Below, piece by piece: positions 3,304-33,497 of a stretch of 64,000 nt of DNA (position 1 is the first letter of the stretch; each line of letters begins with the position of its first letter). A model generated the notes under the pieces. It searched no databases, was not told the DNA's origin, and was given only the letters and a program-made list of their open reading frames with translations. Source of the DNA: Candidatus Microgenomates bacterium (lineage in GTDB: Bacteria > Patescibacteriota > JACPGU01); assembly GCA_016188915.1 (NCBI GenBank), contig JACPGU010000002.1, positions 85,287 to 149,286 on the forward strand, in the 5' to 3' direction. Position numbers and translations under genes: made by a program.

Positions 3304-4501
3304 AATAAATATTATACAATACGATAGACAAACCTAGCAAAAACCAAAAATAAATCATCAGATCGTTTTTCCAAATGGTACTCTCAACCAATCCATGAGA
3401 CAAAACAGCCACCATGGAAGATAAGACCGAAATCGACAAAAGAAAATCTTTGGTCAATACTTTACTTAGCATTTTCAAAGATGATATTATCAGCCAGATA
3501 ATAGAGGCTACGCCCAATATTCCTATTTGTAGCCAAATATTAATAAGCATATTGTGTGGTGTAATAGCATGAGGGGTGACATATTCAGGATAATTTATTC
3601 TGCTTTTTGTATATTCCCCAAAGTAAGATTGAAAATTACCCAGTCCAACCCCCGCGATAGGGCTACCAACCCCTATCTCCCAGCTGGTGCGCCATATTTC
3701 TATTCTTATAGAATCAGACTTCTCTATACGACTACTGGGTATCACGCCAAATAAATAGAGTCCTTTTACTATAAAAAGCGCAACCAAAGAAAGCATTATC
3801 AAAGCACCCACAAAGCCAATCCAGCGATAGTGAAAAAACTTTTTTATGATTGTCCAGACAGCCAAAAAAACTAAAGCCACCAACAGCCCCATCCAGGCAC
3901 CTCTGGAAAAAGTAAGAAACAAACCAAACAATAAAACAAAAAGAGCTGCCCAGATAATCTTTTTATTTATTTTTTTATCGGACAAAAGCCCTATAAACAA
4001 AAATATCAGTGGCGTAATGTATAAAGATAAATAATTAGGCGAAGAAAAAATAGATCGCAATCTGCCGTCTTCTAAAAAATTCGGAATGCTAAAATAACCC
4101 AAAAAACCTATGCCCACTAATAAAACGCCAGAAGAGACAATTGCTAAAAAAGAATTGCATACCTCTTGGCGAGTTTTTATCAATGATATGAATAAAAAGA
4201 AAAATAATAAACTATCAAAAAAATATGCCTTAAAAATGCCCAAAGCCGATAATTTGTCTGGCGATACAAAAACTGCCGATATTCCAGACAACAAAAATAA
4301 AACTGCCGGTAAAAACAATTTGCTGGCAATTATTTTTTTTATAATATCGCCCGTTTTTCTATTCTTTATATTAATACCCAAAAATATAACGAAAGCTGTA
4401 TAAATCTCCAATTCTAAAATAGTTGAAGGAATATTAAAAATTTTTACCTTAATTAAATAAAGAGGCAAAGAAAAAAGAATTAAATAGATAAAATTTGCCA
4501 T
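3287..4501 (-). CDS. O-antigen ligase/Wzy-like polytopic membrane protein
   Basis: 404 aa with more than 10 predicted TM helices. Wzy_C-like motif FSRGAWMGLLVALVFL. Overlaps the downstream glycosyltransferase gene by 17 nt. Confidence 0.6.
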   Translation of the reverse strand: MANFIYLILFSLPLYLIKVKIFNIPSTILELEIYTAFVIFLGINIKNRKTGDIIKKIIASKLFLPAVLFLLSGISAVFVSPDKLSALGIFKAYFFDSLLFFFLFISLIKTRQEVCNSFLAIVSSGVLLVGIGFLGYFSIPNFLEDGRLRSIFSSPNYLSLYITPLIFLFIGLLSDKKINKKIIWAALFVLLFGLFLTFSRGAWMGLLVALVFLAVWTIIKKFFHYRWIGFVGALIMLSLVALFIVKGLYLFGVIPSSRIEKSDSIRIEIWRTSWEIGVGSPIAGVGLGNFQSYFGEYTKSRINYPEYVTPHAITPHNMLINIWLQIGILGVASIIWLIISSLKMLSKVLTKDFLLSISVLSSMVAVLSHGLVESTIWKNDLMIYFWFLLGLSIVLYNIYYAEKK

Positions 4502-5778
4502 TATTTTTCGTTATTTGATAATCTTTGAGCTATAAGTATCAATCCAATAATCACCCATACATGCATTATATAGATAGTAGAGAAAGTAGCATACTGCAGC
4601 AAAATAGCAAAAAAAGATAAGCTCAAAGCAAAGATCAGAGTCTTAATCCATCTATCGTGGGATCTGATATAGGAAAAAATCGATTGCCAAAATACAGAGA
4701 TAATAAAAAGTAAAAAAGCTAAAAATCCTATTGTTCCGATTTCTGACAAAATCTCTAAATATTGATTATTGACTATGGGCCAACCAGCTTCTGGCACATT
4801 GACGGGGTAGCCAGAAAAATAAGGCCCAAAATTACCAATCCCTATGCCAACCCAGGGGTTATGGCGAAAAGCATCTATCGCTACCGCATAAGACTCTTGT
4901 CTTTCCTTGATAGAGCCTCCCTGAAAAATTATATTGTAAGCTTTTTCATAGCTTTTGTCCCAAGAATACCCCCCGATTTTGCTGACCGCAAACAAAGAAA
5001 TGAAAAAAACTAATAGAGAAATAAGGAGAAGGATATAATTTTTTTTATGAAAAACAATTTTTGCTCGTAATATCAAAAAAACTATAAGCGCGATAGTCGT
5101 AGCTATTATACCGCCTTTAGAAAAAGTAAGTAGCAAACTCAACAAAAGCGTCAAAAAACCGATAAAAAACCATGTTTTGTTTTTCTTTTCATCGGAGAAA
5201 AAAGAAGCAGACAAAAAAATCAAAACTGGCGCTATCAAAAAATTGGCGAAATACAATGGTTCAATAAAAGTAGACTGTATCCTTGGCAAACCGAAAACAT
5301 TATGAGTATAACGATTAGATAGCCCAGTCAAATATTGCGGAAGCCCTAAAAGATCACCGCTAAATTGAAAAAATCCAAAGATAGCGGCTAAGATGGTCGT
5401 TCCTAGAAAGATAGCCAAGGCGACATTAAACTTTTGTTTGGAATCTATCGCTGACACTAACGCAAAAGGTACAAAAAACATAAATGTCGAGAATGCCAAA
5501 ACATGAATACCTCTATCTAGATTTTGCGCCACTGTCAAAGAAATCAATCCTGCCAGTAAAAAAACTAAATAAAAAATCAAACTCTTGGGGATGTATATTT
5601 TTTTATTAAGAAATAGAAATCGCCAGCTGATGATAAAAATCAAGGCTACAACAAAGATCTGGCTTAATCTAATGGTAAATCCAGCAAAATCAAAGCTACC
5701 AATTCTTTCCATTGGCAAAACAATAATAGTGGCTAGAGCTAGAAAAAAATCTATATTTTTAACAAAATATTTAATCAT
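4501..5778 (-). CDS. O-antigen ligase/Wzy-like polytopic membrane protein (paralog 2)
   Basis: 425 aa and polytopic. Motif FSKGGIIATTIALIVFL in a Wzy_C-like position. Confidence 0.55.
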   Translation of the reverse strand: MIKYFVKNIDFFLALATIIVLPMERIGSFDFAGFTIRLSQIFVVALIFIISWRFLFLNKKIYIPKSLIFYLVFLLAGLISLTVAQNLDRGIHVLAFSTFMFFVPFALVSAIDSKQKFNVALAIFLGTTILAAIFGFFQFSGDLLGLPQYLTGLSNRYTHNVFGLPRIQSTFIEPLYFANFLIAPVLIFLSASFFSDEKKNKTWFFIGFLTLLLSLLLTFSKGGIIATTIALIVFLILRAKIVFHKKNYILLLISLLVFFISLFAVSKIGGYSWDKSYEKAYNIIFQGGSIKERQESYAVAIDAFRHNPWVGIGIGNFGPYFSGYPVNVPEAGWPIVNNQYLEILSEIGTIGFLAFLLFIISVFWQSIFSYIRSHDRWIKTLIFALSLSFFAILLQYATFSTIYIMHVWVIIGLILIAQRLSNNEK

Positions 5779-16611: not shown

Positions 16612-16681
16612 TCTCGACTCTCTCTTGTAAATAGCACTCTTTTACGCTACAATATTTGAGATAATTCTTCAAAGAAAATAT

Positions 16682-16753
16682 TCCGCGGTAGCTCAATGGT
16701 GGAGCAATCGGCTGTTAACCGATCGGTTGCTGGTTCGAGTCCAGCCCGCGGAG
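16682..16753 (+). tRNA. tRNA-Asn (anticodon GTT)
   Basis: Hand-folded cloverleaf. Acceptor TCCGCGG/CCGCGGA, D-stem GCTC/GAGC, anticodon stem ATCGG/CCGAT with loop CTGTTAA, T-stem GCTGG/CCAGC with loop TTCGAGT, discriminator G. No CCA is encoded. Confidence 0.85.
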
Positions 16754-16764
16754 TTAATAACAAA

Positions 16765-20629: not shown

Positions 20630-22240
20630 TTAGCAATTGGAGAGGTCGCATAGTGGCCTAGTGCGCCGCCTTGGAAAGGCGGTATATCCGCAAGGGTATC
20701 GGGAGTTCGAATCTCCCCCTCTCCGTTTATAGGGATAGATGTGCCTTTTCTGTATTATCAGGAAGGGTTTTTTTAGTATAATATCGAGTTTTTTGTTAGT
20801 CAAAGTGAAGTTCGAACCGATTGTTTTCAGGATTTGCTTTTTCGTCTCCATATTTCCAGTTTCAAACTTTATTTTGGTGTAATAAGAGAAATTAAACAGT
20901 TCCTCTACTAGTTCGAGCTGACAGTATTCTTTGTCCCTCCATTTGTTCTCTAGTGTTGTTATTTCTTGTTCTTCCTGTATTGTTTCTTTGGAGAATTTTT
21001 CACAATCCTCTGAAGTGAAAAATCCATTATCTTCCAATATCTGTCTTTTCAGATTATCCATTTTCTTTTTATTGCTTTGCCTGCGTTGCTGAAGACCTTT
21101 CAATATCTCGGTCTGAGTTTTTATCTCCTGATTGTTATGCTCTCTTGCATATTTCAAGACCCATTCCTTGAATTTATCAGAGATAGTTATACTATTTATG
21201 GTTTCTAGTAATTGCCTGTCGAGCTCTTTAGCTACTATGTATGGTTGGGAGCACTTTATCGCTTTGTTCTTTCTTGTGCAACGGTAGTAGGTGTAGTATG
21301 GGGTTTTAATGCGAGTTGCGTGGCGGTTCCTGTGTTCCTCTGCTGTTATCGAGCAACCACATTCGCCACATTGTATTAGGCCAGTGAAATCAAAGTCGTG
21401 CTTTTGTTTTCTTGGCTTACCCTTACTTCCTAGGGCATCCTGAATGTAATCAAACTCCTCTGGCGTTATCAGGGATATATGATGGCCTTGCTTAATGCTT
21501 CCTCTGTGCTTAATCATTCCGTAGTAGAACGGGTCGGTCAAAATCCTATAAAATGTGCTCCTAGACATTGGGCCACCACCCATTTTTTTAGTTCTTGGAG
21601 TTCGGTAGCCATACTCATTGTTTAGTGTTTCCAGAGCCTGTCTAACTTCGTATTTGTCATACAGGATTAGCTCTAACGACTTTCTTATTAGGTTAAATCT
21701 CTCAGGGTCGGGGATGGATTCACTCAATCCCTCTCCCCTAGAACCATCGTTAATATATCCTGCTGGTGCAGAGCCAGGCCTTAACCCTCTCTCGAACTTC
21801 TGCCTATACCCCCTCAGGATATCCTCACTTTTATTGTCGTTTTCTAACTTTGCCTGATTGCAAATCATACTAAAAAGAAATTTATCATTGGGGGTATTTT
21901 TGAATACTTGGTTTGGTGTTCTAATTTCAGCTATTTTACCCGAATCCATCAGGTATACCAACATCCCAGTGTCGACAGAATTTCTCGATAACCTGTTTGC
22001 ATTCCAAGTAAGAATACCGTTAGCTTTATTATGTTCGAATCCCTTAATCATATCATTGAACACTGGTCTGCCAGGCTTCTTGGCGGTGTGAGATTCCTGT
22101 AATGTATCGCAAATATGTAAACCAATCTTTTTTGACAATACACTTAACTCCGCTATTTGTGACTCAATAGAAGCAGCCTGCTTCTCTTCTTGCTCTGACG
22201 ATTTTCTTGCGTATAGAATATAATTTATTTTTTCTTCCAT
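20630..22240 (-). CDS. large serine recombinase (integrase), 3' end antisense to tRNA-Ser
   Basis: 536 aa. Resolvase-type catalytic N-terminus YILYARKSSEQEEKQAASIESQ. Central recombinase domain and a Cys-rich zinc-ribbon region (CGECGCS...YYRCTRKNKAIKCSQPY). The last roughly 30 codons lie entirely within the tRNA-Ser gene on the opposite strand. Confidence 0.85.
   Translation of the reverse strand: MEEKINYILYARKSSEQEEKQAASIESQIAELSVLSKKIGLHICDTLQESHTAKKPGRPVFNDMIKGFEHNKANGILTWNANRLSRNSVDTGMLVYLMDSGKIAEIRTPNQVFKNTPNDKFLFSMICNQAKLENDNKSEDILRGYRQKFERGLRPGSAPAGYINDGSRGEGLSESIPDPERFNLIRKSLELILYDKYEVRQALETLNNEYGYRTPRTKKMGGGPMSRSTFYRILTDPFYYGMIKHRGSIKQGHHISLITPEEFDYIQDALGSKGKPRKQKHDFDFTGLIQCGECGCSITAEEHRNRHATRIKTPYYTYYRCTRKNKAIKCSQPYIVAKELDRQLLETINSITISDKFKEWVLKYAREHNNQEIKTQTEILKGLQQRRQSNKKKMDNLKRQILEDNGFFTSEDCEKFSKETIQEEQEITTLENKWRDKEYCQLELVEELFNFSYYTKIKFETGNMETKKQILKTIGSNFTLTNKKLDIILKKPFLIIQKRHIYPYKRRGGDSNSRYPCGYTAFPRRRTRPLCDLSNC
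20639..20725 (+). tRNA. tRNA-Ser (anticodon GGA), class II with long variable arm
   Basis: Hand-folded. Acceptor GGAGAGG/CCTCTCC, D-stem GCAT/GTGC, anticodon stem CCGCC/GGCGG with loop TTGGAAA, 6-bp variable arm ATATCC-GCAA-GGGTAT, T-stem GGGAG/CTCCC with loop TTCGAAT, discriminator G. Confidence 0.85.
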
Positions 22241-22299
22241 ATACTTGTTGTTTATTTATATTATAGTTATTTTCCAAACAAAATAAAAGAGTTTTTGGC

Positions 22300-22530
22300 T
22301 TAATCAAGCGTAGTTTTTCGATGCTGTTCTCGGAATCTACTTTCTGACTTTATACTGCTTCCTATACCAACAACTGCTTTCGGCAAGCAATCGACCTCTT
22401 GTGGAGCGACTAACTGAAATATCTCTATCAGTTCTGCTCCTTTGCCCATAGCTTCACTGTCGGGGATAGTCTCTCCGAACTCTTCTTCCCAAATATCTTG
22501 TAATGCTCTTATGGACTCGTCTGACAACAT
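22300..22530 (-). CDS. hypothetical protein
   Basis: 76 aa, acidic, no motif. Confidence 0.3.
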   Translation of the reverse strand: MLSDESIRALQDIWEEEFGETIPDSEAMGKGAELIEIFQLVAPQEVDCLPKAVVGIGSSIKSESRFREQHRKTTLD

Positions 22531-22576
22531 TTCACTCTTCTTTCTCGTAATTTCTTACGGTTCTTTATAATAAAAA

Positions 22577-22605
22577 AATCTGGGTCAGTGCGGTGAACCC
22601 AGATT
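22577..22605 (-). terminator. hairpin terminator candidate, also one arm of an 11-nt inverted repeat
   Basis: AATCTGGGT-(11 nt)-ACCCAGATT. On the minus strand it is followed by TTTTTTTATTAT. Its loop GGTCAGTGCGG recurs inverted at 22655-22665 (CCGCACTGACC). Confidence 0.4.
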
Positions 22606-22953
22606 CTTTTAACTAAACTCAATTTAATTTAATTAAATTCAGTAAACATAAGTCCGCACTGACCTTGACTCTTAAAGTGTTAAGTTGCAGGCGGTAATAA
22701 AAAACCGTCCTGCTGATATCAAAAAAGCTTTCATCACGTGAGCAATATATGCTTCTTTGATTTTGGCAGAACGGCATTATAGCCAGTTCTTATAATGTCT
22801 TGTATTTTTGTTTAACTTTGCCTAGTTGTTAATTCTATTTTAACTCTCTGGGATAAAGCGTCAATAGCTTTTTTGGCTTATCTATGTGATAGTTTGGTAG
22901 AGTATTGAAGACTAGTCAAAATATCTGTGGAAAACTATAATGCGTTGACCTTA

Positions 22954-24249
22954 TTATATTCGTCGTTCTATAAATTTATCTTGAAACTTTTCAATAGTCT
23001 GGAACGACACTTCGTTGAAGTTAAATATCTTGAAAAGCTTTATGCATAAATCATTTGCTGTTTCTTTCCATAAAGACTTTAGTTTTACCGATGACACTCT
23101 TTCGTCCAAAGATACTACGGATTCACGACAAATATACCAATCGTAAAGCAAAATATTAAAGTCGTAGGATTTTAGCTTTCTATCTTCAGCACCGTAAAGT
23201 TTTATACCAATATCAATATCGCCATCGTAGTTTAGCTCATCTACATAAAACTGTTTAGAGAATAAGAGAAATTCTGTTATTGAGTATATGGCTCCTATAT
23301 AGCTTAATGCTTTGCCTGTGTCGGTTTCGTCCTGTTTTGCACCGTCTTCTCTTAGAGTGATTTTGTAAACAAAAAGACCGCTCTGGAAAAGACGGAAAGC
23401 TTCATAATGCTTTGGTTCAAATTTTGTCCACGACTGAACACCTTTTGAAAAGTTAGCAAAATCGTTTTTATCAAGATGTGGAAAATCCCACCCCCTCAAT
23501 TGAACTCTCTGGTTCTCAACTGCTTGTTTTACTTTGGTTATATCTGGAATTAAGTCTTTTTTATATTCGGTTGGTTTTACCACTATTTCCCAATATCCAT
23601 ATTTTTTTAACTCTTCTCCTATTTTTTTCTCGATATAGTCACTGGCTTCGACCAACTCATCCTTGTAATCGTCATTTTCTTCTGTATTGCTGGGTCTTCC
23701 ACTAAACAGTCGTCCAATCTGATTCAATAGAAAATCTCCTTTCTTGGTCATTGCCCTACCAAGTAATTCTCGCATTTCCGTTGAAGATGGTATGGCTTCG
23801 CTCGATCCCTTTTCCGTTCTAATATAAATGCCCCCATCTTTTAGTATCGGTTGCTGTTTTGTATTCTGATTACTCCTCTTGCATATTATTGGTTCTTCAT
23901 CGAATTCGGGTACTTCTATTATGACAAGGTTCTTTCCTTTATAAATAGGTCGTTGAACATAAACTGTAAATTTAGGGTCTGTATAACTATGCAATTTATT
24001 ATTAAAGGAAGTCTGGTCAAAGGACGCGAGATTCTCATCGGATAAACCCTCTACTGTGCCGTCATCCTTTATGCCAATAAAAATTCTCCCACCGTTTTTA
24101 GTGTTTGCCATCGCCAATATGTCTTTTATGACACCGAGATGACAATCTTTATCAGTGTTGCAATTAAAATCTTCCTTAAAGTCGACATTGGCTGTCTCTG
24201 CTCTCGATTTAAATATTTGCTCTAGCTCTTCTTCTGGGTATTGCGACAT
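22954..24249 (-). CDS. Schlafen-like AlbA_2 (putative DNA-binding) domain protein
   Basis: 431 aa. The N-terminal 120 aa, FKEDFNCNTDKDCHLGVIKDILAMANTKNGGRIFIGIKDDGTVEGL, match the AlbA_2/divergent-Schlafen pattern (E..EfK....DK...i.k.isAfANt.GG.l.iGv.DdG.i.G). The C-terminal 250 aa are unassigned. Confidence 0.55.
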   Translation of the reverse strand: MSQYPEEELEQIFKSRAETANVDFKEDFNCNTDKDCHLGVIKDILAMANTKNGGRIFIGIKDDGTVEGLSDENLASFDQTSFNNKLHSYTDPKFTVYVQRPIYKGKNLVIIEVPEFDEEPIICKRSNQNTKQQPILKDGGIYIRTEKGSSEAIPSSTEMRELLGRAMTKKGDFLLNQIGRLFSGRPSNTEENDDYKDELVEASDYIEKKIGEELKKYGYWEIVVKPTEYKKDLIPDITKVKQAVENQRVQLRGWDFPHLDKNDFANFSKGVQSWTKFEPKHYEAFRLFQSGLFVYKITLREDGAKQDETDTGKALSYIGAIYSITEFLLFSKQFYVDELNYDGDIDIGIKLYGAEDRKLKSYDFNILLYDWYICRESVVSLDERVSSVKLKSLWKETANDLCIKLFKIFNFNEVSFQTIEKFQDKFIERRI

Positions 24250-24409
24250 AAAGTTTCATTAATATCTCTATTTATTATAACACAAAAAAACAGGATTTGC
24301 CCTGTTATTTTTGTCCGAAAAAGAGTTGTTTAATGGACAGATGTTTTACTTTTACCTGTAAGGTTGAATAGCCACTATTTTCGATAGGGTTTTTTGGACA
24401 GGCGATATT

Positions 24410-25198
24410 TCATTTAATATCTATGTCGTCCATATCAATATCCATAAGCTCTCTAAATTTTTCGGCTATGCTTTTCCATTTACCTGCCGTTGGTTCGGAA
24501 ATATCTATTACTAACTCGCCATTAAGGTTTTTCTTTATATACTTATGTTTCTTGATTTTCTCATAAAAAATTACTTCCATAAATTCATTTAGTAAGCTAA
24601 GTGTCGTCTTGATAGCCATAAACACCCCATAATGATATTTCTCGTGTTCTTTTTTGTAACCACCACCAATCCAAAGTGTAGGATTTGTCTGGTCGAGATT
24701 TCCCTTGGGGGCAGTATGTAAGAGGCTTATATGCGAAATATAGTTGCTTAGTACTCCATACTCCTGCCCAGCCAATGGAATAGCTTTGGTGGCAATTGAG
24801 ATAGCCTTTGTAGAGTCATACTTATTCGATTTTAACTGTATCAGTTTGTCGGGGTTAGAATGTATATCAAAAGCAGAAGCCACTGTTTCTACTACCATTC
24901 TTAAGATTGTCTGTGGCTCCAAGATATGTCCTCTTCTAAAGATTTCTATTGCAGATATTATTGACCCAAGCCCATTCCATAAAAAAATAGCGGATTGAAA
25001 ATCTGCATCAGATAGAGCATTCTCTCCTTCAGAATCAATAAGACCGATAAGGGTTTCTAATGACTCGGCTATTTCTTCTGCGAGACCATAGAATATCTCG
25101 TCATAATTACTATCAAAATCTTGGGCGACAAGGTCGCTTTTTGACTTTATATGTCCCAAAACGGTTTCTGTTGTAATTGGTTGCCTAACCGTATCCAT
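24410..25198 (-). CDS. hypothetical protein (island cargo)
   Basis: 262 aa, no recognisable motif. Acidic C-terminus MDIDMDDIDIK. Confidence 0.35.
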   Translation of the reverse strand: MDTVRQPITTETVLGHIKSKSDLVAQDFDSNYDEIFYGLAEEIAESLETLIGLIDSEGENALSDADFQSAIFLWNGLGSIISAIEIFRRGHILEPQTILRMVVETVASAFDIHSNPDKLIQLKSNKYDSTKAISIATKAIPLAGQEYGVLSNYISHISLLHTAPKGNLDQTNPTLWIGGGYKKEHEKYHYGVFMAIKTTLSLLNEFMEVIFYEKIKKHKYIKKNLNGELVIDISEPTAGKWKSIAEKFRELMDIDMDDIDIK

Positions 25199-25223
25199 AG
25201 TAACATTATACTATTTTTATAGA

Positions 25224-25805
25224 CTATTTGAAACTAGAAATCGCATTTTGTACTGTCGATTTTGAGATGTTTACCATACTTGCTATTCTCCTAACAGACA
25301 ACCCTTGCTGTCTTAATTCACTTATCCGAACAATATCAATCTCTGATGCTGGTCTGCCTATTTTCTTTCCTTTTGCTCTTGCCTTTGCCATTCCTGCCCT
25401 CACCCTCTCTTGGATTATTGACCTCTCAAATTCTGCGAAAGCAGATATCATTGTGAACATTACCTTCCCTGTCGGTGTCGATGTGTCTATCGCCTCTTGA
25501 TAGCTCACAAAGTCTATTCCTAGCGAATTAAAGGTATCCAGAGAGGTTATGAGTTGCTTTGTGCTTCTACTGAACCTATCAAAGCGAAATACCACCACAC
25601 AATCAAATTTTCTCTTGTGAGCGTCATTTAATAGCTCCGTAAGGGCCGGTCTGTTTTCTTTGCTTCCGCTATCCGTATCAGTGTAGCTTCTGAATACCTC
25701 CCAGCCTCTATTTTTCACATACTCTTGTAATGGTATCAGTTGGGTATCGAGGTCTTGGTTCTTATCTGTGGTACTTATACGAGCGTAGATTGCAATTTTT
25801 TTCAT
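25224..25805 (-). CDS. small serine recombinase (resolvase/invertase family)
   Basis: 193 aa. Catalytic N-terminus IAIYARISTTDKNQDLDTQ. C-terminal HTH LSVRRIASMVNISKSTVQNAI. Confidence 0.8.
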   Translation of the reverse strand: MKKIAIYARISTTDKNQDLDTQLIPLQEYVKNRGWEVFRSYTDTDSGSKENRPALTELLNDAHKRKFDCVVVFRFDRFSRSTKQLITSLDTFNSLGIDFVSYQEAIDTSTPTGKVMFTMISAFAEFERSIIQERVRAGMAKARAKGKKIGRPASEIDIVRISELRQQGLSVRRIASMVNISKSTVQNAISSFK

Positions 25806-25844
25806 ATCTTGTGGTTAGTTATATTGCTATTGGCACAAAACAAA

Positions 25845-25866
25845 AGCCTCGCATTTCTACGAGGCT
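25845..25866 (-). terminator. rho-independent terminator (minus strand)
   Basis: AGCCTCG-catttcta-CGAGGCT. Followed on the minus strand by TTTTGTTTTG. Lies 3' of yidD. Confidence 0.55.
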
Positions 25867-26003
25867 TTATTGTTGAGTAATTTCTCTTTTCTATTTTTCG
25901 GTTTTTTCTTTTCGCTCCCCATAACCAAAATTATTGTATAGATTTAGTATAGAATATGAACTATCTGTGTCAATAGTTATTGTCTATATGAGGCCAAATA
26001 TCA

Positions 26004-26219
26004 CTATGGGTAATCTATACAGCTCTCGAAATTGTCTGGGCGACATCGGTTAATACGATTGAGGGCTTTTCTTGTCCCCATTGTCACTCCATACTTCTCA
26101 ATAGCCAATATGGCATAATCGGAACAAGTTGGATAAAAACGGCACTGTATCCTGCGTCTCAAAAGTGGCGAAATTGTCTTCTGGTAGACAACTATTAAGA
26201 ATATAACTAATTTTGACAT
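26004..26219 (-). CDS. yidD: membrane protein insertion efficiency factor YidD
   Basis: 71 aa. The RFYPTCSDYA motif and overall pattern are typical of the YidD family. Confidence 0.75.
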   Translation of the reverse strand: MSKLVIFLIVVYQKTISPLLRRRIQCRFYPTCSDYAILAIEKYGVTMGTRKALNRINRCRPDNFESCIDYP

Positions 26220-26220
26220 C

Positions 26221-26478
26221 CTATAGTTCGTGTGTTATTTCTTCTTTTTTTATAGCTCGAGAACCACATTTTGGGCACTTGCCAAGGTCTAGTGGCTTTT
26301 TGTCTGGGATAAATGCAGCGGGGCCACAACCAGAACAGCACGATGCAGATTTGCCACAATTCTCCATCGATTCGCCACACGACTGTGCCGCTTCCTGCTT
26401 ACCATAGAACCAGATATTCCCACAAGCACTACAGCTACATTTTGTTTCCTTTATGATTTTGGGCTTTGTTTTTTCCAT
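26221..26478 (-). CDS. zinc-ribbon protein
   Basis: 85 aa with four CxxC pairs (CSCSAC, CCSGC, CPKC). Its end abuts the yidD start. Confidence 0.45.
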   Translation of the reverse strand: MEKTKPKIIKETKCSCSACGNIWFYGKQEAAQSCGESMENCGKSASCCSGCGPAAFIPDKKPLDLGKCPKCGSRAIKKEEITHEL

Positions 26479-26522
26479 ATTTCGTATTTAGTTAATAATA
26501 TGACAGTTGGGCTATTATTATC

Positions 26523-28073
26523 CTATTTGCAGGGTTCGTGTAGGGTTCTACTGGGATATGCTTTCTGTACAGCTTCTAAACTCGGAAAAGATTGTAGATA
26601 TTTTGTAGAGAGATTCTTATAGGCCGAGTCTGTATCGCAATAATAAAGATATGCTGTGCCATAAGAGCTCGCATAATAAGTGTGTCCAGATGTGGTTTGC
26701 GGGGCAGGGACTGGAGTGGGCGTTACTGGTGCTGGCACAGGGCTAGTTGGTGCTGGTGTGGTGGTAGTTGGTGACGAACTTGTTGTATTGCCGCTACAGG
26801 TAGTCGAGCTCCATAATCCCTTCTGCCCACTTCTCGCTTGTTTCTCTGCTTCTTTGAACTCGGCTTGGTATTTATATGGGATATCGTATGTATATTCGTG
26901 AGCATACCCATCACCAATCATTTGCTTGTTAAAAAATGTGCCATTTTCAAGATAAACATAACGCAATAGCCGACCATATTTGTCCCTATCCCCTTGAGTC
27001 GCATCAGATTCAAGCTTAACTTTCTTCCCCGAAAGCAATGCCTTCGCTCTATTGGAAGCCTCAACACCAAAACACTGAACTGGTTTTCGAGGGTCAACAG
27101 TTTCAGGAGTATCTACACCTATTAGACGAATCGTTTCTGTCTTTCCGCTAACACTGGCCTTAAAAGTATCGCCATCCGTTACGGAAACAACGCCATAATA
27201 CTGTGTAGTGGTCTGGGTGGGCGTTGTCTGGTTGCTCTGGGTGTTTGAACCAGAAGATGACTGACTAGCGTCCGTTTTGTTGTCTTCCCCTGTTGTTTGG
27301 GATTCTTGATTTGCCTCCTCCTTCTTTGGTGGAGTATAGGTTATTTTTATATCCTTTCTGTCGCTTTGATTCCCTGCTTCATCTATAGCTATAAGATAAA
27401 AATTGTTCTCTCCTTCATTCAGGCTGACTGAATCAACGGTAATTTCTTCGCTGGATTCTCGTACCTCTTTAATTTTTTTGTTGTCTGAACCAAAAAGTTC
27501 TATTCTTGCGTTTTTCTCTGTTTTTCCTTTTATATCTGTCTTGTCTTTGTCGCTAGTAATCTCTGTATTTTCAAGTTCTATGTTTGGCTTTTGTGTATCA
27601 AGAATAATTTTTTTAGTAGCACTTTTATTTGTACTGCCATTACTGTCTGTTGTGCTTACATAAACTGTGTTTTCACCTTCATTGAGCGTAAACTCTCCAA
27701 AAATGAACTTTCCGTTGGAATCGGCAATCACTTCTTGGATTTCTTGATTATTTATCATAAGTTTCGCTTTTGTCCCGCTTTCAATATGGTAGCCAGAGAC
27801 AACAACCGCCTTTTGATTAGTCGGACTTTTTATTTCATCTAAAAAAGGTTGTCCTTTTGCCGACAAGGACATTATCAGAATCAAAAACACCACAACAACT
27901 ATGGTGGCAATGATTTTATAGACTCGTCCCCATTTGGTCTTCGCCCAAATAGTCCAGACAGCAATAAAGGGTAATAAGAGAATGATAACTGGTAGTAAAA
28001 CGATGATGGCTACAATGCCCCACCATTTTGCATACCATCCTCTTTTTTTGGTTTTTACTTCGGTGTTTTCCAT
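26523..28073 (-). CDS. membrane-anchored secreted thermonuclease (SNase-like) with Ig-like domains
   Basis: 516 aa. N-terminal TM helix, then two beta-sandwich-like regions, then an SNase core VSVTDGDTFKASVSGKTETIRLIGVDTPETVDP...RDKYGRLLRYVY. Ends in a Pro/Thr-rich linker and a Cys-containing C-terminus. Confidence 0.7.
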   Translation of the reverse strand: MENTEVKTKKRGWYAKWWGIVAIIVLLPVIILLLPFIAVWTIWAKTKWGRVYKIIATIVVVVFLILIMSLSAKGQPFLDEIKSPTNQKAVVVSGYHIESGTKAKLMINNQEIQEVIADSNGKFIFGEFTLNEGENTVYVSTTDSNGSTNKSATKKIILDTQKPNIELENTEITSDKDKTDIKGKTEKNARIELFGSDNKKIKEVRESSEEITVDSVSLNEGENNFYLIAIDEAGNQSDRKDIKITYTPPKKEEANQESQTTGEDNKTDASQSSSGSNTQSNQTTPTQTTTQYYGVVSVTDGDTFKASVSGKTETIRLIGVDTPETVDPRKPVQCFGVEASNRAKALLSGKKVKLESDATQGDRDKYGRLLRYVYLENGTFFNKQMIGDGYAHEYTYDIPYKYQAEFKEAEKQARSGQKGLWSSTTCSGNTTSSSPTTTTPAPTSPVPAPVTPTPVPAPQTTSGHTYYASSYGTAYLYYCDTDSAYKNLSTKYLQSFPSLEAVQKAYPSRTLHEPCK

Positions 28074-28297
28074 ATCGTTTGGTTATTTATAAACACAAAA
28101 AAGGTCACCTGAACTAGCGGTGTAACCTTGCGGACACACCCGCTATCCTTTCGGATAGTGACCTCAACGACGAAGTACCAGTCAGATGACCGTTCTTGTC
28201 GTTGAGGATTTCATAACCATACCTCAAATTACTTCGAGGGTTAGGTTAATACTCTAAATTGTAAATATACTCTATCATAAAAATCTACCAGAGTAAA

Positions 28298-28930
28298 CTA
28301 CCCATAAAACTTCCATTTCTTCTTTAATTCTTCTTGATAGCAGTCAAAGGATTCATCTTCATTTTCAATTAAAGACCATTGTGAAAACCAAAGTCGCACT
28401 CTTTTTTGTTTATCTTCTTCCGTTCCATCTTGCCATCCCCCAAACCTCTTTTTTCCTATAGCCGTATGGGAATCTATAAAAATTTCTTTTATCTCTGGAA
28501 AATTTTCATCCTTATCTATTTCGTCCACTACGATATTGGTCAGGTTATCTCCGAGTCTTGTCTTTTTATTCCTGCAAGCCAAAACTATTAGATTAACAAA
28601 GGGGAGAAATCCATCTCCCCCAAAGTTCGTTTTGAATACTGATAGGTTCATTCTTATTTCCAGTATCCCTGCCAACGTTAGTGCTGTTGTGTTTGCTAGT
28701 CCTATGTCCTCGTGGACTATCGTGTTTAATCGTCTGCTCAAATATTTTCCGTATCCTGAAGCGTAAAATATGTAAGCAAATTTACAAGCGTCTCTTTCGT
28801 CTCCCCTCCTGATACATTTCTGAAGAGCTGAAGCAACGAGGTCAAAAGTATATCCTTTATCTTCAAATTTCTTTGCCAATTTTATCTCCCATCCTTTTCC
28901 TGCTTTTTGTTTCTTTTCTTCTGCCATCAA
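28298..28930 (-). CDS. stand-alone RarA/MgsA C-terminal-domain (MgsA_C)-like protein lacking AAA+ module
   Basis: 210 aa. FDLVASALQKCIRRGDERDACKFAYIFYASGYGKYLSRRLNTIVHEDIGLANTTAL...LIVLACRNKK lines up with the RarA C-terminal pattern [47 protein letters not shown]...VYLACAPKS. Confidence 0.5.
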   Translation of the reverse strand: MMAEEKKQKAGKGWEIKLAKKFEDKGYTFDLVASALQKCIRRGDERDACKFAYIFYASGYGKYLSRRLNTIVHEDIGLANTTALTLAGILEIRMNLSVFKTNFGGDGFLPFVNLIVLACRNKKTRLGDNLTNIVVDEIDKDENFPEIKEIFIDSHTAIGKKRFGGWQDGTEEDKQKRVRLWFSQWSLIENEDESFDCYQEELKKKWKFYG

Positions 28931-29120
28931 TTTGTTTTAGTTATGTTTTTATTTTAGTTTATGTACCCACTGTGTCAATAGGATTTTAGCTTAACCAAGG
29001 GTCTTTTCTGCCATCACACAACATCGTGTACAACCCTTGCTGTCTTGAATGATGGGTTTGATTTAAGTCATTATTTGTGCGATAATACAAGCGAATTACA
29101 GGTAATAGCGTGTAAAAACA

Positions 29121-30569
29121 ATGTCAAATATAGACTCGCCTCAATATCTATCAAGCAAGGACATCGGAGTTTTGAAAAAAACCCTTGTCTCGTTTGCAAT
29201 CGACACATCAAAAGACAAACGAATCGGGCAACCCTATTTCCAGAACAATGAGCAATGGGAATTTTTCTATTTATACTTTAAAAAACACGCAGAGGAAGAT
29301 ATAAAGAAAATCTGTAGCAATATCATAAGCAATCATAAAGAGATTAAAAAGACGATATTTTTTGATGCAATCTACGATATATTCCAAAGAAATGTTTTTT
29401 ATGCTATTTTTCGAGGCGAATTCACCGCTGTGGCGTTAAAAACCGAGAAATTTGATGATGGCAGTATGGCTATTGACCTCGCTCCTCGTAAAGTGGGTTT
29501 AGATACATTCATTAAATATTCTGATGACTTAGCTATTCCGATTGTCGAGCACATAAACCAGCAGATAGCCAATAAAATATCTTTTTACAAGAATCATAGA
29601 GTGATAACGTGGGTGCCAGTTACCAACTTACGCATAGACAAAGATGTATGTTTTGAATTTGCCAATGTTAGTTTTATCTCTAAAGAGTGTCCCGCTCTTA
29701 CGGAAAATTTTGTAAAGTGGGTTAAAATGGATAAGTTTCGAGATGGCGAGAGGACAATGCTTAGAGATTCTGGAAATTTTGCTATTATAAAGTTCGAGGG
29801 CTGTTCAGCACCAAAAGCAATCTTTGATTTAAGTAGGCCATATTTCAATAAAGTGTTTGGTGTCCTCCGTCTATTGCTAGATTGGGCAGAGGTAGAAGGA
29901 GAACTTATAGGGACAAAGCAGTCATTGGAGACAGAATATACCGTGATTTATTCTGAGAGTAGTCACGATAACTCCACGATGACAGCAGTGATGCCAGAAA
30001 TAAATAGCGATTTCTTTATTGCAAGAAATGAATATTGGATACGTTGTCCGATAATTAGCAGTAAGAGCATTGAGCAAATATCGAACTCTCCTAACCTCAA
30101 AGCCACAAATGCGTTATTGGAAAGGGCATATAACAGTAAGAGTACCTCATTGGATAGCAAGATTTTTGACTCATTATTTTGGTATTCAGAAAGCTTAAAA
30201 CATTTTACTACTCCCCATAAACTTGTTGGATTTGTAACTGCCCTAGAGACTATTCTTACAAGCAATAAGCTAACAGAGGGTTTTTATGACAAATCAATAT
30301 CGGAAATGTTCTCAGAACGAGGAGCTATAGTGTTGTGCGATAGCTATGAAGATAGATTGGAAATGAAACGAAAACTAAAAGGGATATATCGCATAAGAAG
30401 TATATTGGTTCACGGTTCTGGAACGGGTAGCATATCAGATTCCGAAATCACCGATGCTCATCATCTAGCCACAGGCATTTTGTTGGGAGTCATTGACTTA
30501 GCGAACAAAGAGAATATTTCTTCAGTAGAAGAACTGAACGATTATTTTCAAAAAGTATTACTGTCCTAG
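29121..30569 (+). CDS. HEPN-like (Rx4-6H) domain protein, possible abortive-infection/defense effector
   Basis: 482 aa. The C-terminal alpha region carries KLKGIYRIRSILVHGSG (R-x4-H and R-x6-H). The N-terminal 300 aa are unassigned. Confidence 0.4.
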   Translation: MSNIDSPQYLSSKDIGVLKKTLVSFAIDTSKDKRIGQPYFQNNEQWEFFYLYFKKHAEEDIKKICSNIISNHKEIKKTIFFDAIYDIFQRNVFYAIFRGEFTAVALKTEKFDDGSMAIDLAPRKVGLDTFIKYSDDLAIPIVEHINQQIANKISFYKNHRVITWVPVTNLRIDKDVCFEFANVSFISKECPALTENFVKWVKMDKFRDGERTMLRDSGNFAIIKFEGCSAPKAIFDLSRPYFNKVFGVLRLLLDWAEVEGELIGTKQSLETEYTVIYSESSHDNSTMTAVMPEINSDFFIARNEYWIRCPIISSKSIEQISNSPNLKATNALLERAYNSKSTSLDSKIFDSLFWYSESLKHFTTPHKLVGFVTALETILTSNKLTEGFYDKSISEMFSERGAIVLCDSYEDRLEMKRKLKGIYRIRSILVHGSGTGSISDSEITDAHHLATGILLGVIDLANKENISSVEELNDYFQKVLLS

Positions 30570-30595
30570 GTTTAATACTATAAGCAACCACTATA

Positions 30596-31129
30596 TTAAC
30601 AGCTTCTCCTTATTCCCAGCTTTATTTCAAAATCTATAAGTGTCTTGGTGGCTTCTAAAGCAAATTTCAATGCTTTGTGCCTTGCTCTAAGAGGCATCTT
30701 GGTTGTTTCTTCGTAGTCTCTCCCTAATTCTTGGTACCTTTTCATAGCTTCTTGGCAAATCGCAATGAGTGATTTCAGGGAATCAAATTCCTGTTTTTCA
30801 TAAACAATTTTTATCTTTCTAAAAAAATATGGATTTCCACTAATAATTACTGCTGAATCTTGTGTTAAGAGATTATTTCTATAATTATTTATAACAGTGT
30901 GGGACGGGATACTTATATTGGGATAATTTATACGGTTGCTTCTAACCAAATACTCTAACTCTGACTTAACTTTTCTTGAAGAATAACCACCGATTACCAT
31001 TTGCCTTAATTCATCCTCTAGCTCCGTTGGGAGAGTAGCTATCTTATTTTTATACCCATAGTCCTTTAGCAGGAGCATTTCTGCTAAGTTATCGGTATTT
31101 CTTTTGATTTGTTCTTCGGTCATTTTCAT
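30596..31129 (-). CDS. hypothetical protein
   Basis: 177 aa, no motif. Confidence 0.35.
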   Translation of the reverse strand: MKMTEEQIKRNTDNLAEMLLLKDYGYKNKIATLPTELEDELRQMVIGGYSSRKVKSELEYLVRSNRINYPNISIPSHTVINNYRNNLLTQDSAVIISGNPYFFRKIKIVYEKQEFDSLKSLIAICQEAMKRYQELGRDYEETTKMPLRARHKALKFALEATKTLIDFEIKLGIRRSC

Positions 31130-31304
31130 ATTTTCTCCTGCATTTCCCGAACAGTTGTAAAGGGATAATTGTATTACCTCATATTTTTTGGTATTATTTA
31201 TGAAGTTTGTATATTAAATGACTGGGATTAGTATTGGCTCTAGCTCCATCAAAGAAATTCGAATGTCGTCCCAGAAGTCCCGTTTTTTGAAAAAAATGCC
31301 GAAA

Positions 31305-31990
31305 GAAAAGCGCGGGGCGTGATGCCCCGCGATAAAATGTATGCTTCAAGCGATCTGCGAGGGGCGCAGATTGCCCAAAACATTACGCGTAATGTCTTAG
31401 TTTTAGTTTCCACTTCACACTATCCCCATAGTGCTTTTTCACCTCTTAATGCTGGCCAGCCACGAAGTTGTGATAATTCTCGAGATCTGACCTTGTCGAA
31501 ATCGTGAAGGACCTGGTGTTGCCGTCACAATCAGAGGCCGTCAGGGTGTCTCCTTTGTGAACCACTTTTCCCCCCAAACAACCAATGATTTCCCTCTCTT
31601 TTGTAGCTTCCCATAAAATCGGGAGTTCTTCTTTCCGCCCTTCTCTTACTGTTCCTTGATCTTGAGTTCGCATGCTCTGAGCCTTTCTGGTTCGTCTGCC
31701 GTAGACAGACTATGGTTTTTTCCTTCCTACTGAAAGGAAAGCTCTACTCTCCCTTCAGGGATTAGCCCCGAGTTATTCCCGGTTTGTTTTGGGACTAATC
31801 CAGTGCCGATAGATCACCTCCTTGCGTTCTCCTTGAGATTTTACACCAGAGCCCAGAAAGTAGGCTTTTATTTTTAAGGTCGGAAAGGTGTTCGCAACAA
31901 CATGGAGAGAAAACTGTCAGAGCATGCGAAGGCGAGCCAGTTTTCTCATCCATGTGTCGCGAACCTGCCGGAATAATAATCTTATGTTAG
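31305..31990. ncRNA. candidate large structured non-coding RNA (identity and strand unresolved)
   Basis: This is an ORF-free stretch of about 0.7 kb with visibly higher GC than the flanks. It contains local hairpins GCGGGGC-gtgat-GCCCCGC (31311-31332), ATCTGCG-aggg-CGCAGAT (31352-31374), CCTTCC-tactgaa-AGGAAAG and GGATTAG...CTAATCC. It also has a perfect 14-nt long-range complement GTTCGCATGCTCTGA (31668-31682) with TCAGAGCATGCGAA (31918-31932), and a crossing complement ATTCCCGG (31781-88) with CCGGAAT (31964-70). Confidence 0.35.
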
Positions 31991-32015
31991 CAAAATAAGA
32001 GAAGAAAGTCAAGCC

Positions 32016-33497
32016 CTAGGGTAGATGCACGGCCTTGGCGGCGTAGGACCTGTGATCGTTGGCAACAATCACCACCAAATCTTCTTTTTTGGCCAATTTT
32101 TTGGTTTTGACGAAATGGGCGATTTCCGCCATCAACTTTTTCTCATTTTCCAGAAAAATCCCGTAGCCGGCCACTACCCCCCAAGAAAGAGCCAGTTGAT
32201 TGATGACTTTTTTGTCATGGGAGAGCGCCACCACGAAACATTGCGGCCTGGACTGCGATATCATCCGCGCCGAAAATCCTGTTTCGGTAAAGCAAACGAT
32301 GCATTTAGCCTTCACATTTTTGGCCAAGGCTTTCGCCGAAGGACCGATGATTTTTGGCGAGATGACGCGATGCGACTGGTTTTTCAAGGGTACCAGATTG
32401 GTTAGTGAAAAATTCTCAAAATTGAGCCTGCCAGTGCGGAAAAGTCCCTTCTCTGTCTCGCGAATGATAGAGGCCATCATTTTCACCGCCTTGATCGGAT
32501 AGGGCCCCATAGCTGTTTCTTCCGACAGCATCACCGCGTCCGTGCCATCCAGCACCGCGTTGGCCACATCGGAAACTTCGGCTCTGGTTGGCCTGGGACT
32601 GGTCATCATTGACTCCATCATTTGAGTCGCCGTAATGACCGGCTTGCCACTTGATACCGCGGCCGCAATGATTTCTTTTTGCGCCAAAGGCACTCTCTCC
32701 GGTGGCAATTCAATCCCTAGATCGCCACGAGCCACCATCACGCCATCGGCTTCCCGCAAGATGCTTTTGATACTGCTGTATGCGTGCGGTTTTTCTATTT
32801 TGGCGATGATTTTGACTCGCGAATCTTTGCGAATTTTGCGAATTTCTTTGCGAAGAATACGAATGTCTTCCGCCGACTGAACAAAAGAAAGCCCAATGAA
32901 ATCCACGTCGTGTTCCACTCCCCAGCGCAAATCGGCCAAATCTTTTTTCGTTAACGCGCCTATGGATAGATGAGCGTTGGGAATATTGATGCCCTTACGA
33001 GACAAAACCAATCCCCCGCGAACCACTTGCGCCTCGGCCATTCCTTTTGCTTTGCCGATCACTTTGAGCTCCACCATGCCGTCCATCATAAGGATTTTGG
33101 TGCCAATTTTTACCTCTTCGGCCAATTGTTTGTAATCAATGGGAAGAAAACCTTTTTTGAATTTGCCGAAACCTACCGAGATTTTCTCGCCTTCGGTCAA
33201 AACAACGCCTTTTTTCGGCAGATCGGCTCCCAAGCGAATCCGCGGCCCTTGAAGATCTTGCAAGATGGCCAGCGACTGATGGTCTTCGTTAGCAATACGC
33301 CTCAATTGATAAAGCCATTGCTCGAACTCTTCATATTTACCGTGCGAAAAATTAAACCGCGCCACATCAAGCCCGGCCTCAATCAAGGCTCTCTGCGTTT
33401 TTTCATCTTTCGTCGCCGGCCCGATGGTGGCGACAATCTTTGTGCGATTTTGGGAAATGTTCATTTTGTTTTTATTAGTTTCTCTATTGTGTTCCAA
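32016..33497 (-). CDS. pyk: pyruvate kinase
   Basis: 493 aa. KIVATIGPATKDEKTQRALIEAGLDVARFNFSHG, ...MVARGDLGIE and later motifs are present. Has a short N-terminal extension. Confidence 0.9.
   Translation of the reverse strand: MEHNRETNKNKMNISQNRTKIVATIGPATKDEKTQRALIEAGLDVARFNFSHGKYEEFEQWLYQLRRIANEDHQSLAILQDLQGPRIRLGADLPKKGVVLTEGEKISVGFGKFKKGFLPIDYKQLAEEVKIGTKILMMDGMVELKVIGKAKGMAEAQVVRGGLVLSRKGINIPNAHLSIGALTKKDLADLRWGVEHDVDFIGLSFVQSAEDIRILRKEIRKIRKDSRVKIIAKIEKPHAYSSIKSILREADGVMVARGDLGIELPPERVPLAQKEIIAAAVSSGKPVITATQMMESMMTSPRPTRAEVSDVANAVLDGTDAVMLSEETAMGPYPIKAVKMMASIIRETEKGLFRTGRLNFENFSLTNLVPLKNQSHRVISPKIIGPSAKALAKNVKAKCIVCFTETGFSARMISQSRPQCFVVALSHDKKVINQLALSWGVVAGYGIFLENEKKLMAEIAHFVKTKKLAKKEDLVVIVANDHRSYAAKAVHLP

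Follow-up and report, generated by a model that had tools for sequence, protein, structure and literature searches.

A 10.56-kb Element Probably Inserted by Its Own Large Serine Integrase at a tRNA-Ser Gene's 3' End in a Patescibacteria Genome

Introduction

How does a block of accessory genes come to lie against the 3' end of a tRNA gene when no long repeat of that tRNA marks its other end? This question is raised by a stretch of 64,000 nucleotides (hereafter the window) from Candidatus Microgenomates bacterium (assembly GCA_016188915.1, contig JACPGU010000002.1, positions 85,287 to 149,286), in which such a block lies between a tRNA-Ser(GGA) gene and pyk. The initial annotation, made from the letters of the sequence, had regarded positions 20630-31300 as a tRNA-Ser-associated accessory island that carries two serine recombinases and defence-like cargo. 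The analysis described here leads to a more defined reading, to which a probability of about 0.8 can be given: positions 20726-31282 (10,557 bp) form one integrated 10.56-kb element, inserted by its own large serine recombinase (LSR) at the extreme 3' end of the host tRNA-Ser(GGA). Window coordinates of the features are collected in Table 1.

The Integrase Gene and the Ends of the Element

The LSR has the three expected domains (PF00239, E=1.8e-16; PF07508, E=3e-10; PF13408, E=1e-11), and its residues 6-441 align to an SPbeta-type integrase (PDB chain 9dxh). In a 12-sequence alignment, R12, S14, R83 and R86 are invariant, and the catalytic region YARKSSE is conserved. Judged by its domains and catalytic residues, the protein is a bona fide large serine integrase. 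A protein search returned more than 3,400 relatives, mostly from Patescibacteria metagenomes, with 37-46% identity among the best 120 listed, and a look-up of the exact integrated protein gave no record.

The open reading frame (ORF) of the LSR runs antisense through the tRNA gene. Indeed, its final 32 codons (about 505-536; ..RRGGDSNSRYPCGYTAFPRRRTRPLCDLSNC) are the antisense reading of the whole tRNA-Ser, a run that had gone unnoticed in the initial annotation. Tails of the type (D/E)SN(P/L/Q..), which are the antisense translation of the T-loop sequence GGTTCGAATCC, are present in 61 of the 120 best homologues. When a detached LSR tail was sought elsewhere in the window, the only match was a spurious one at 53.45 kb, inside an unrelated ORF.

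The exact end of the tRNA is the reference point for both junctions. ARAGORN places the gene at 20638-20726 and Rfam at 20639-20725; reading of the sequence favours the Rfam ends, with the T-loop TTCGAAT at 20706-20712 and the discriminator G at 20725. The two ends of the element have in common the plus-strand hexamer CCGTTT, at 20723-20728 in attL and at 31280-31285 in attR, and these 6 nt only. Read on the LSR strand, with a slash at the junction, attL is TATAAACGG/AGAGGGGGAG-ATTCGAA and the site at 31.28 kb is TCAAAAAACGG/GACTTCTGGGACGAC-ATTCGAA. The distance from TTCGAA to CCG is 11 nt in the tRNA versus 16 nt in the far arm, so that the T-loop mimic of the far arm lies 5 bp further from the crossover. 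On the LSR side of attL, the motif ATCCC, located 7-11 nt from the discriminator, fits the motif A(A/T)TCC conserved in the family (see below). The junction bases, CGG/A in the tRNA and CGG/G in the P arm, are identical in the window and in L042, the only other element at a tRNA-Ser(GGA).

In a search of 19.5-33 kb, the tRNA 3' end was not found again as a long direct repeat. Such a repeat is not expected of serine integrases, whose strand exchange takes place at a 2-bp core, and here only 6 nt are common to the two ends. Partial tRNA matches at 30117 (inside an ORF) and 28123 (in a hairpin of the LOOT RNA discussed below) were considered and rejected as chance coding or GNRA-hairpin similarities.

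The offset between the two arms has a counterpart in a well-studied enzyme, as the zinc-ribbon-domain (ZD) motif of the LI/A118 integrase occupies positions 16-24 in attP and 11-19 in attB (Rutherford 2013; PMC3783163). The outward shift of TTCGAA by 5 bp matches this rule; the tRNA arm, consisting of T-arm and acceptor strand, is thus read as a putative B half-site, and the GTTCGAAC arm as a putative P half-site.

From these junctions, the empty site can be reconstructed as ...CTCTCCG/TTTTTTGAAAAAAATGCC, with the attB junction string CCCCTCTCCGTTTTTTGAAAAAAATG, and the junction string of the excised circle (attP) as AGAAGTCCCGTTTATAGGGATAG. Joining of the LSR ORF to the far arm at the crossover gives a free form of 527 aa that ends in ..DDIRISLMELEPILIPVI (..YKRDFWDDIRISLMELEPILIPVI). 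The reconstructed tail carries a DDIR motif and is encoded in frame by the attR arm; its alignment to the short-tailed homologue P0082 needs a single gap and comes within one residue of the C-terminus. Homologues of the P0082 type have no tRNA adjoining.

The mechanism proposed on this basis is the following. In attB, the T-arm and the 3' strand of the acceptor stem would serve as one half-site and the T-rich trailer past the tRNA as the other. Strand exchange would take place inside CCGTTT, that is, the last three tRNA bases plus TTT, and because the exchange falls within this shared hexamer the tRNA would stay intact and no long repeat would be made. The attP site would span the 3' end of the LSR gene, one arm being its last codons and the other now lying 10.5 kb away at attR, with TTCGAA 5 bp further out, which is the geometry by which serine integrases distinguish attP from attB. 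Since attP would lie inside the integrase gene, integration would change the C-terminus of the enzyme, from the free form of 527 aa to an integrated form of 536 aa ending in antisense-tRNA codons. The LSR itself probably made these junctions, and the exact crossover dinucleotide presumably falls among the six shared bases.

Transcription signals are found near both junctions. A terminator-like hairpin (20743-20768, plus strand) with a T7 run lies 17 nt past tRNA-Ser, where the LSR gene has its 3' coding end; upon insertion, the tRNA thus seems to receive a new terminator from the element. A strong minus-strand terminator (31311-31331) lies 25 bp past the reconstructed empty site and belongs to the upstream host unit.

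The Same Architecture in Metagenomic Relatives

A survey of the family was based on 80 related metagenome loci, which were fetched (L numbers below), and at least 575 related stretches were confirmed. The overlap of integrase and tRNA recurs in many of them: in 36 of the 80 loci, the end of the LSR ORF overlaps or abuts an antisense tRNA gene, which is always entered from the tRNA 3' end. These tRNAs belong to nine amino-acid types (Asn 11, Gln 11, Tyr 4, Ser 3, Trp 2, Arg 2, and Glu, Asp and His one each). A T-arm only is present in 11 other loci, 25 have no tRNA and a P arm instead, and 8 are incomplete or unclear. In L080, a group I intron (RF00028, 11618-11821, minus strand) directly follows the T-arm that abuts the LSR end, and such an intron explains the missing ARAGORN tRNA call in the T-arm-only loci. 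It is in line with the intron-split tRNA genes that have been described in Patescibacteria (PMC13011429).

In the loci without a tRNA, the ORF continues as ..(L/V)xD(V/I)RT(F).., on the strongly conserved DNA GAC GTT CGA ACC TTTT. Closely related enzymes are found in both states, with and without a tRNA, and diverge at one base. In particular, L027 (T-arm) matches L031 (no tRNA) with 90% identity along 4.2 kb, and their homology ends at 11565/11566, as it does in comparison with L015, L017 and L020, at 8 nt into the CCA-tRNA end. The breakpoint follows TGGCTCCG, which corresponds to CCA, the discriminator and four acceptor bases. Counted from the discriminator, TTCGAA starts at +14 nt in the tRNA arm and, counted from the equivalent base, at +19 nt in the no-tRNA arm; TGG, the antisense of CCA, still precedes the discriminator-equivalent base in at least 10 of the 25 no-tRNA loci. 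From the overlap of the identity blocks, strand exchange would be placed at the discriminator and the two preceding bases (tRNA positions 71-73). The other P half-site corresponds to the last ~25 nt of the LSR gene, where a conserved A(A/T)TCC lies at a distance of 7-11 nt to the junction and is translated as the (S/N)P of ..SPRLL.. tails, and attP would thus straddle the end of the integrase gene. The attP-like loci may represent free attP forms.

To delimit further elements, a position weight matrix (PWM) built from 23 P arms was scanned up to 10 kb upstream of tRNA-abutting LSRs, with the register-matched bases equal to the tRNA 3' end. In L011, L012, L042, L059 and L086, the scan located a far-end P arm with 6-8 nt in common with the end of the tRNA (Table 1), giving a range of 5.9-11 kb for the elements of relatives, into which the 10,557 bp of the window element fall, and a longer tRNA repeat was found in none of the 38 relatives examined. 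In the window, the site at 31.28 kb is joint second among 128,000 PWM positions. Shuffled windows contain 0.007 sites per window with an equal score and CGG in register, and AAACGG in register occurred in 0 of 300 shuffles.

Further P arms were noticed in the relatives. The attP-like LSR ends are often followed by 1-3 of them, in direct orientation, 0.1-5 kb downstream and with no tRNA within 10 kb (L034 at 7904 and 10948; L035 at 6032, 6710 and 11536; L031 at 11576 and 15481; also L052 and L079). They could be tandem or decayed elements or a cassette array, and the tandem accretion of elements is our best guess. On the host side of the far end in L012 (~520-545) and L042 (~4770-4796), the sequence resembles the P' arm of an LSR tail (AGTCCGCGAATG and AATCCCATTTTG, respectively) and looks as if it were the remnant of an earlier element. 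The junctions of the window are not affected by these features of the relatives.

Mobility and Alternative Explanations

Several observations weigh against a single, integrase-inserted element in the window. First, neither an empty attB nor an excised attP junction was found for this strain. Second, the attP-like loci of relatives are not on circular contigs, some of them lying on contigs of 175-360 kb and some having extra P-arm copies. Third, the window P arm has a score of 11.1, the lowest training site one of 14.1, and two unrelated sites of the window score equally high. Fourth, the analysis of windowed GC and codon usage that the initial annotation had advised proved uninformative, as GC, GC at third codon positions (GC3) and codon usage do not distinguish the island from its flanks (GC3 inside versus outside, p=0.56). 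Finally, the relatives that are free of the island are distant (37-57% protein identity for L015 and L075), and the orientation of their tRNA is reversed.

The searches for a mobile form covered several sources. The strain is present in two Logan samples only, and the island is present in both. Look-ups of the small resolvase, Prx and a 61-aa flank ORF returned only same-strain Logan contigs from these two samples, and the contig with the resolvase and the flank ORF carries the island. Neither the attP nor the attB junction string has an exact match in IMG/VR, which contains 6 close relatives only, none of them circular and none with a tRNA. Terminal overlap as a sign of circularity was found in none of the 80 metagenome loci. 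What the sequences show is the gene content, the overlap of ORF and tRNA, the two junctions with their spacing and the recurrence of this architecture in many relatives. The element may still be able to excise. As a separate observation, the same-strain Logan contigs break inside tRNA-Ser on both sides of the tRNA interior (20665 and 20696), and the island-side contig that was checked is 100% identical to the window. These 30 nt of the tRNA interior are probably shared with other genomes in the sample, and the breaks are uninformative on excision.

The alternative that survives best, though still unlikely, holds that only the LSR-proximal genes (20.7-25.9 kb) are mobile, while the YidD-SNase operon, the LOOT RNA and the distal ORFs are ancestral or belong to an older insertion, the site at 31.28 kb being a chance match or a relic. 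The normally core nature of yidD, the low PWM score of the P arm, the uniform composition of the block and the signs of tandem or decayed elements in relatives would all agree with such a composite origin. On the other hand, no other P-arm candidate is found between 20.7 and 31.3 kb, where the next best score is 6.1, and at attR the strand, the register, the shared hexamer and the reading frame are all correct. Moreover, SNase and LOOT recur in other LSR elements, and L015 and L075 are without such genes between tRNA-Ser and pyk.

Somewhat less probable still is that the block represents a fixed and immobile remnant, with an LSR that is a relic or has been domesticated and a tRNA overlap that has no present function. 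A remnant of this kind would be in keeping with the fact that neither an excised form nor an empty site was seen, with the host-like codon usage and with the divergence of the P arm from the family consensus. It is opposed by the state of the genes and sites themselves, as the LSR ORF is intact with its catalytic motifs conserved, both att arms and the partner gene are intact, and the reconstructed free-form ORF closes at the normal C-terminus of the family. That the small resolvase rather than the LSR integrated the element is very improbable, even if phiRSM provides a precedent for a small serine recombinase at a tRNA-Ser 3' end (PMC3816273) and the window element does encode such an enzyme, since the att arms belong physically to the LSR gene and vary together with the LSR across the 80 loci, the other delimited elements are without a small resolvase, and the core common to phiRSM and its tRNA has 13 nt versus 6 nt here.

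Insertion of one element by its own LSR thus remains the preferred reading, and the corresponding part of the initial annotation has held up well. The insertion of an accessory block at tRNA-Ser is borne out by att sites at both ends and by the architecture of the family, and the limits of 20630-31300 then given are within ~20 bp of the att sites derived here. The sequence search agrees that the tRNA 3' end is not repeated beyond the 6 nt of CCGTTT. Of the two serine recombinases, both are present, the large one with the domains and the 9dxh match described above, and only this one is tied to the att sites. The synteny comparison that had been suggested was answered in part, since L015 and L075 do have the order dnaG-tRNA-Ser(GGA)-pyk without the island, with the reservations on distance and orientation already made.

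Partner Protein, Cargo and LOOT RNA

An all-against-all comparison of six delimited elements found only the LSR and a small protein encoded upstream of it in common. An iterated profile search recovered the 42-aa core of this partner (LsxEaIxEFkxIYkkxFGxxLSdeEA..) from 62 of the 80 loci, where it lies 0-3.3 kb upstream of the LSR and, with few exceptions, on its strand. The 76-aa partner of the window has no match in Pfam, PADLOC, PHROG or NCBIfam. By its position, it is proposed as a candidate recombination directionality factor or regulator, and it may help to control the direction of recombination.

The remaining genes of the window element are variable cargo (Table 1). The small resolvase matches CcrA, CcrB and CcrC far below the cut-off in an NCBIfam scan and is found in the window element only, being absent from the other delimited elements; it is thus not the integrase of the family. 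As for the 210-aa protein, the MgsA_C matches are sub-threshold in Pfam (E=0.003), and several C-terminal RarA/MgsA chains of the PDB match with E=0.004-0.016. The 482-aa orphan has two homologues only among 5.8 billion proteins, R426 and H431 are invariant in the three sequences, and its top fold matches are three Csm6 HEPN nucleases at a non-significant level (E=0.15).

Table 1. Features of the window and of related loci. Coordinates of related loci (L numbers) are those of the respective locus; for far ends, the distance is given.
Feature	Position or distance	Strand	Remarks
tRNA-Asn	16681-16754	opposite rpoD-dnaG-prx	
LSR	20630-22240	-	536 aa as integrated; Resolvase, Recombinase and Zn_ribbon_recom domains
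tRNA-Ser(GGA)	20639-20725	+	Rfam, 55.4 bits; host gene; T-arm and acceptor 3' strand as putative B half-site
attL	20700-20770		tRNA 3' end joined to putative P' arm (3' coding end of LSR gene)
76-aa ORF	22300-22530	-	small conserved partner upstream of LSR
AlbA_2/Schlafen-type protein	22954-24249	-	PF04326, E=4e-20; PADLOC candidate PDC-S50, E=9e-12
262-aa protein	24410-25198	-	no match in Pfam, PADLOC, PHROGs, NCBIfam or PDB
Small resolvase/invertase	25224-25805	-	193 aa, C-terminal helix-turn-helix (HTH); PF00239, E=2e-46; phrog_125 'DNA invertase', E=8e-57
YidD	26004-26219	-	TIGR00278; normally core gene; in SNase operon
Zn-ribbon protein	26221-26478	-	same operon as SNase and YidD
Membrane-anchored SNase nuclease	26523-28073	-	Ig-like domains; Pfam; PADLOC SNc+LTD model match
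LOOT RNA (RF03000)	28119-28247	-	74.2 bits versus gathering 46.4; full model 1-121; 45 nt upstream of SNase start codon
210-aa protein	28298-28930	-	weak MgsA/RarA C-terminal similarity; phrog_33349, E=7e-12
482-aa orphan	29121-30569	+	C-terminal RxxxxH (HEPN-like) motif
177-aa protein	30596-31129	-	adjoins attR; no match in any library
attR	31240-31300		putative P arm (T-loop mimic TTCGAA 31258-31263) joined to host B' flank
pyk	32016-33497		right-hand limit of region with accessory genes
LOOT RNA, L059	6145-6271		
LOOT RNA, L086	6784-6908		
LOOT RNA, L080	6002-6124		
LOOT RNA, L083	4049-4180		
LOOT RNA, L089	4264-4382		
Far end, L011	7.3 kb		tRNA-Asn; common bases CTCCGC
Far end, L012	11.0 kb		tRNA-Gln; common bases CTGCGGG
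Far end, L042	5.9 kb		tRNA-Ser(GGA); common bases TTTGCGG
Far end, L059	9.2 kb		tRNA-Tyr; common bases GTCCAGG
Far end, L086	8.6 kb		tRNA-Tyr; common bases GTCCAGG

The descriptions of the cargo made before database searches fared unevenly. The small resolvase-type recombinase, the AlbA_2/Schlafen-like protein and the secreted nuclease operon, with its membrane-anchored SNase, Zn-ribbon ORF and YidD, were all recovered by the searches. The HEPN-like label is backed by the invariant RxxxxH in three sequences and not by the fold matches, and what is left of the MgsA_C-domain label is a weak similarity with all matches sub-threshold. The description as defence-like cargo is supported in part only, as PADLOC supports only the AlbA_2 protein, as a candidate, and the nuclease; together with the suggestive HEPN motif, they do not add up to a complete known system. 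The statement that core functions are lacking between tRNA-Ser and pyk does not stand, because yidD is present.

Phage relationships of the cargo are limited. The PHROG matches of the island comprise the invertase, the nuclease, an 'ATPase' family and a weak helicase-annotated match; there are no capsid, tail, portal, terminase or Zot-type genes among the PHROG matches of its ORFs, and none of the ORFs of 20.6-31.3 kb matches Phage_integrase, the tyrosine recombinase family. An inovirus prophage was considered for the window and rejected, as Zot and Rep genes are lacking; one relative (L012) has a Phage_CRI rolling-circle Rep. Other cargo of relatives includes an HTH_36 protein and a SpoVG-like protein in L011 and, in L059, a protein with an N-terminal DPPF motif, read by eye as a DNA methyltransferase, a homologue of which lies beside a 929-aa ORF in L012. 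In L013, an unrelated LSR at tRNA-Gln has, 6.5 kb upstream, a SNase domain (3191-3556) that is 70% identical in protein sequence to that of the window, which suggests that the SNase nuclease moves as cargo.

An RNA that the initial inventory had omitted, LOOT, precedes the SNase gene. In L059, L086 and L080 it has the P arm on one side and the tRNA on the other, hence is inside the element, and in all six loci with LOOT a cargo gene follows on the same strand, 45-160 nt downstream of the RNA. The downstream genes encode the SNase, putative methyltransferases (three cases: L059 by its DPPF motif, L080 and L083 by resemblance to L059-type cargo), and secreted or membrane proteins. This arrangement suggests a 5' leader or an element-linked small RNA, and the link with the elements gives this orphan RNA motif a first genomic setting.

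Host Neighbourhood

The source genome belongs to the Patescibacteria (candidate phyla radiation, CPR). Among species-representative genomes, the best match of its DnaG comes from a Saccharibacteria metagenome-assembled genome and has an identity of 55% at most. To the left of tRNA-Ser lie the core genes prx, dnaG and rpoD and tRNA-Asn. In L001, L002, L015 and L075, tRNA-Ser(GGA) likewise adjoins dnaG and tRNA-Asn follows rpoD; in L015 and L075, pyk is on the far side of tRNA-Ser, which is 56 bp from dnaG and ~225 bp from pyk. This synteny is an absence of the island genes and not a base-exact empty site. The possibility that the tRNA is carried by the element was rejected, as the same tRNAs hold conserved host positions beside rpoD-dnaG (with pyk as a further neighbour in L015 and L075), whether an element is present or not. 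The rpoD-linked tRNA-Asn is unoccupied in the window and has an LSR element in L010, L011, L015 and L017, which makes the rpoD-dnaG neighbourhood an insertion hot spot.

Two further observations concern the surroundings of the element. Both tRNA-Asn and tRNA-Ser of the window are opposite to rpoD-dnaG-prx and are co-directional with these genes in L001, L002, L015 and L075, so that each tRNA looks flipped in place with the order of the protein genes unchanged. Between attR and pyk, outside the element, lies a GC-rich (43-47%) unit of ~670 nt (31311-32012, minus strand) with a promoter-like site (32012-31984), the strong terminator (31331-31311) and short ORFs only. For the segment 31.3-32.0 kb, Rfam gave no match at E<=1 and the fetched loci contain no homologue; it could be an undescribed structured RNA.

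Significance and Comparison with Known Systems

Serine integrases, widely used as tools in genome engineering, are believed to avoid tRNA genes. On balance, we lean towards the view that the relatives form a large undescribed clade of Patescibacteria serine integrases that use the near-universal T-arm/acceptor end of tRNAs as attB, carry attP, with its T-loop mimic displaced by 5 bp, in the 3' coding end of the integrase gene itself, switch their C-terminus upon integration, have a partner with a 42-aa domain and often have LOOT at the head of a cargo operon. With most of a clade of at least 575 metagenomic relatives at tRNA 3' ends, this would be an unusual target class for serine integrases. 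Use of the T-loop as distal motif, with its mimic 5 bp further out in attP, would explain the spread over nine tRNA amino-acid types. The rule also allows both ends of an island to be predicted from sequence, where repeat-based island finders fail. To our knowledge, very few mobile elements and genetic tools are available for Patescibacteria. If the reading is true, the change of tail could act as an inbuilt control on how active or stable the integrase is, and the family would offer ready-made integration tools for these hardly tractable ultrasmall bacteria. The elements would be natural integration modules, with nucleases, methyltransferases, AlbA_2 proteins and LOOT RNA as cargo moving between Patescibacteria genomes. 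A literature search, with most subscription journals outside its coverage, found no description of this tRNA-end LSR clade, and tRNA is nowhere mentioned in Durrant 2022, a large survey of LSRs.

The closest enzymes are the large serine integrases of phages and of integrative and conjugative elements (ICE), such as A118/LI, SPbeta SprA, Bxb1 and phiC31, which, like the window LSR, have three domains, short att sites, a tiny core and no long repeats. As here, their distal motif is 5 bp nearer the centre in attB than in attP (PMC3783163). They usually target protein-coding genes, whereas the family of the window targets tRNA 3' ends, and it further differs from known LSR elements in its Patescibacteria hosts, small elements (6-11 kb) and lack of phage structural genes. 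[quoted passage not shown] By these features the window element is not of the tyrosine type, as no repeat of ~15 nt or more is found in the window or in the 38 relatives and only 6-8 nt are common. In SCCmec, large serine recombinases (Ccr) insert a cargo island at the 3' end of a housekeeping gene without its inactivation. The target in that case is a protein gene (rlmH/orfX) and the ccr genes are internal and do not overlap att, whereas here the LSR gene overlaps att.

Serine recombinases at tRNA genes have been reported before. The filamentous phages phiRSM use a resolvase-sized enzyme at the tRNA-Ser 3' end with a 13-nt core (PMC3816273), and differ in both respects from the LSR and the 6 nt found here. 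Serine recombinases of Mycobacterium actinomycete integrative and conjugative elements (AICE) at tRNA-Leu are a predicted group (PMC3218068), and Mageeney 2020 placed 14 of 297 predicted serine integrase islands at t(m)RNA genes, terming them previously unreported and in need of proof (PMC7192596). None of these reports contains an overlap of integrase ORF and tRNA, a T-loop mimic, or a large clade that extends over nine tRNA types. A change of protein C-terminus upon integration is reportedly known from the integration-dependent immunity of mycobacteriophages described by Broussard et al. in 2013, in which attP lies inside a coding gene. That system has a tyrosine integrase, and it is the repressor gene that is split; here, this happens to the gene of the serine integrase itself, and the effect of the tail swap is putative. 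Collectively, the features that distinguish the family from known systems are the tRNA 3'-end target, the T-loop as distal motif, attP in the integrase ORF, the partner protein and the host phylum.

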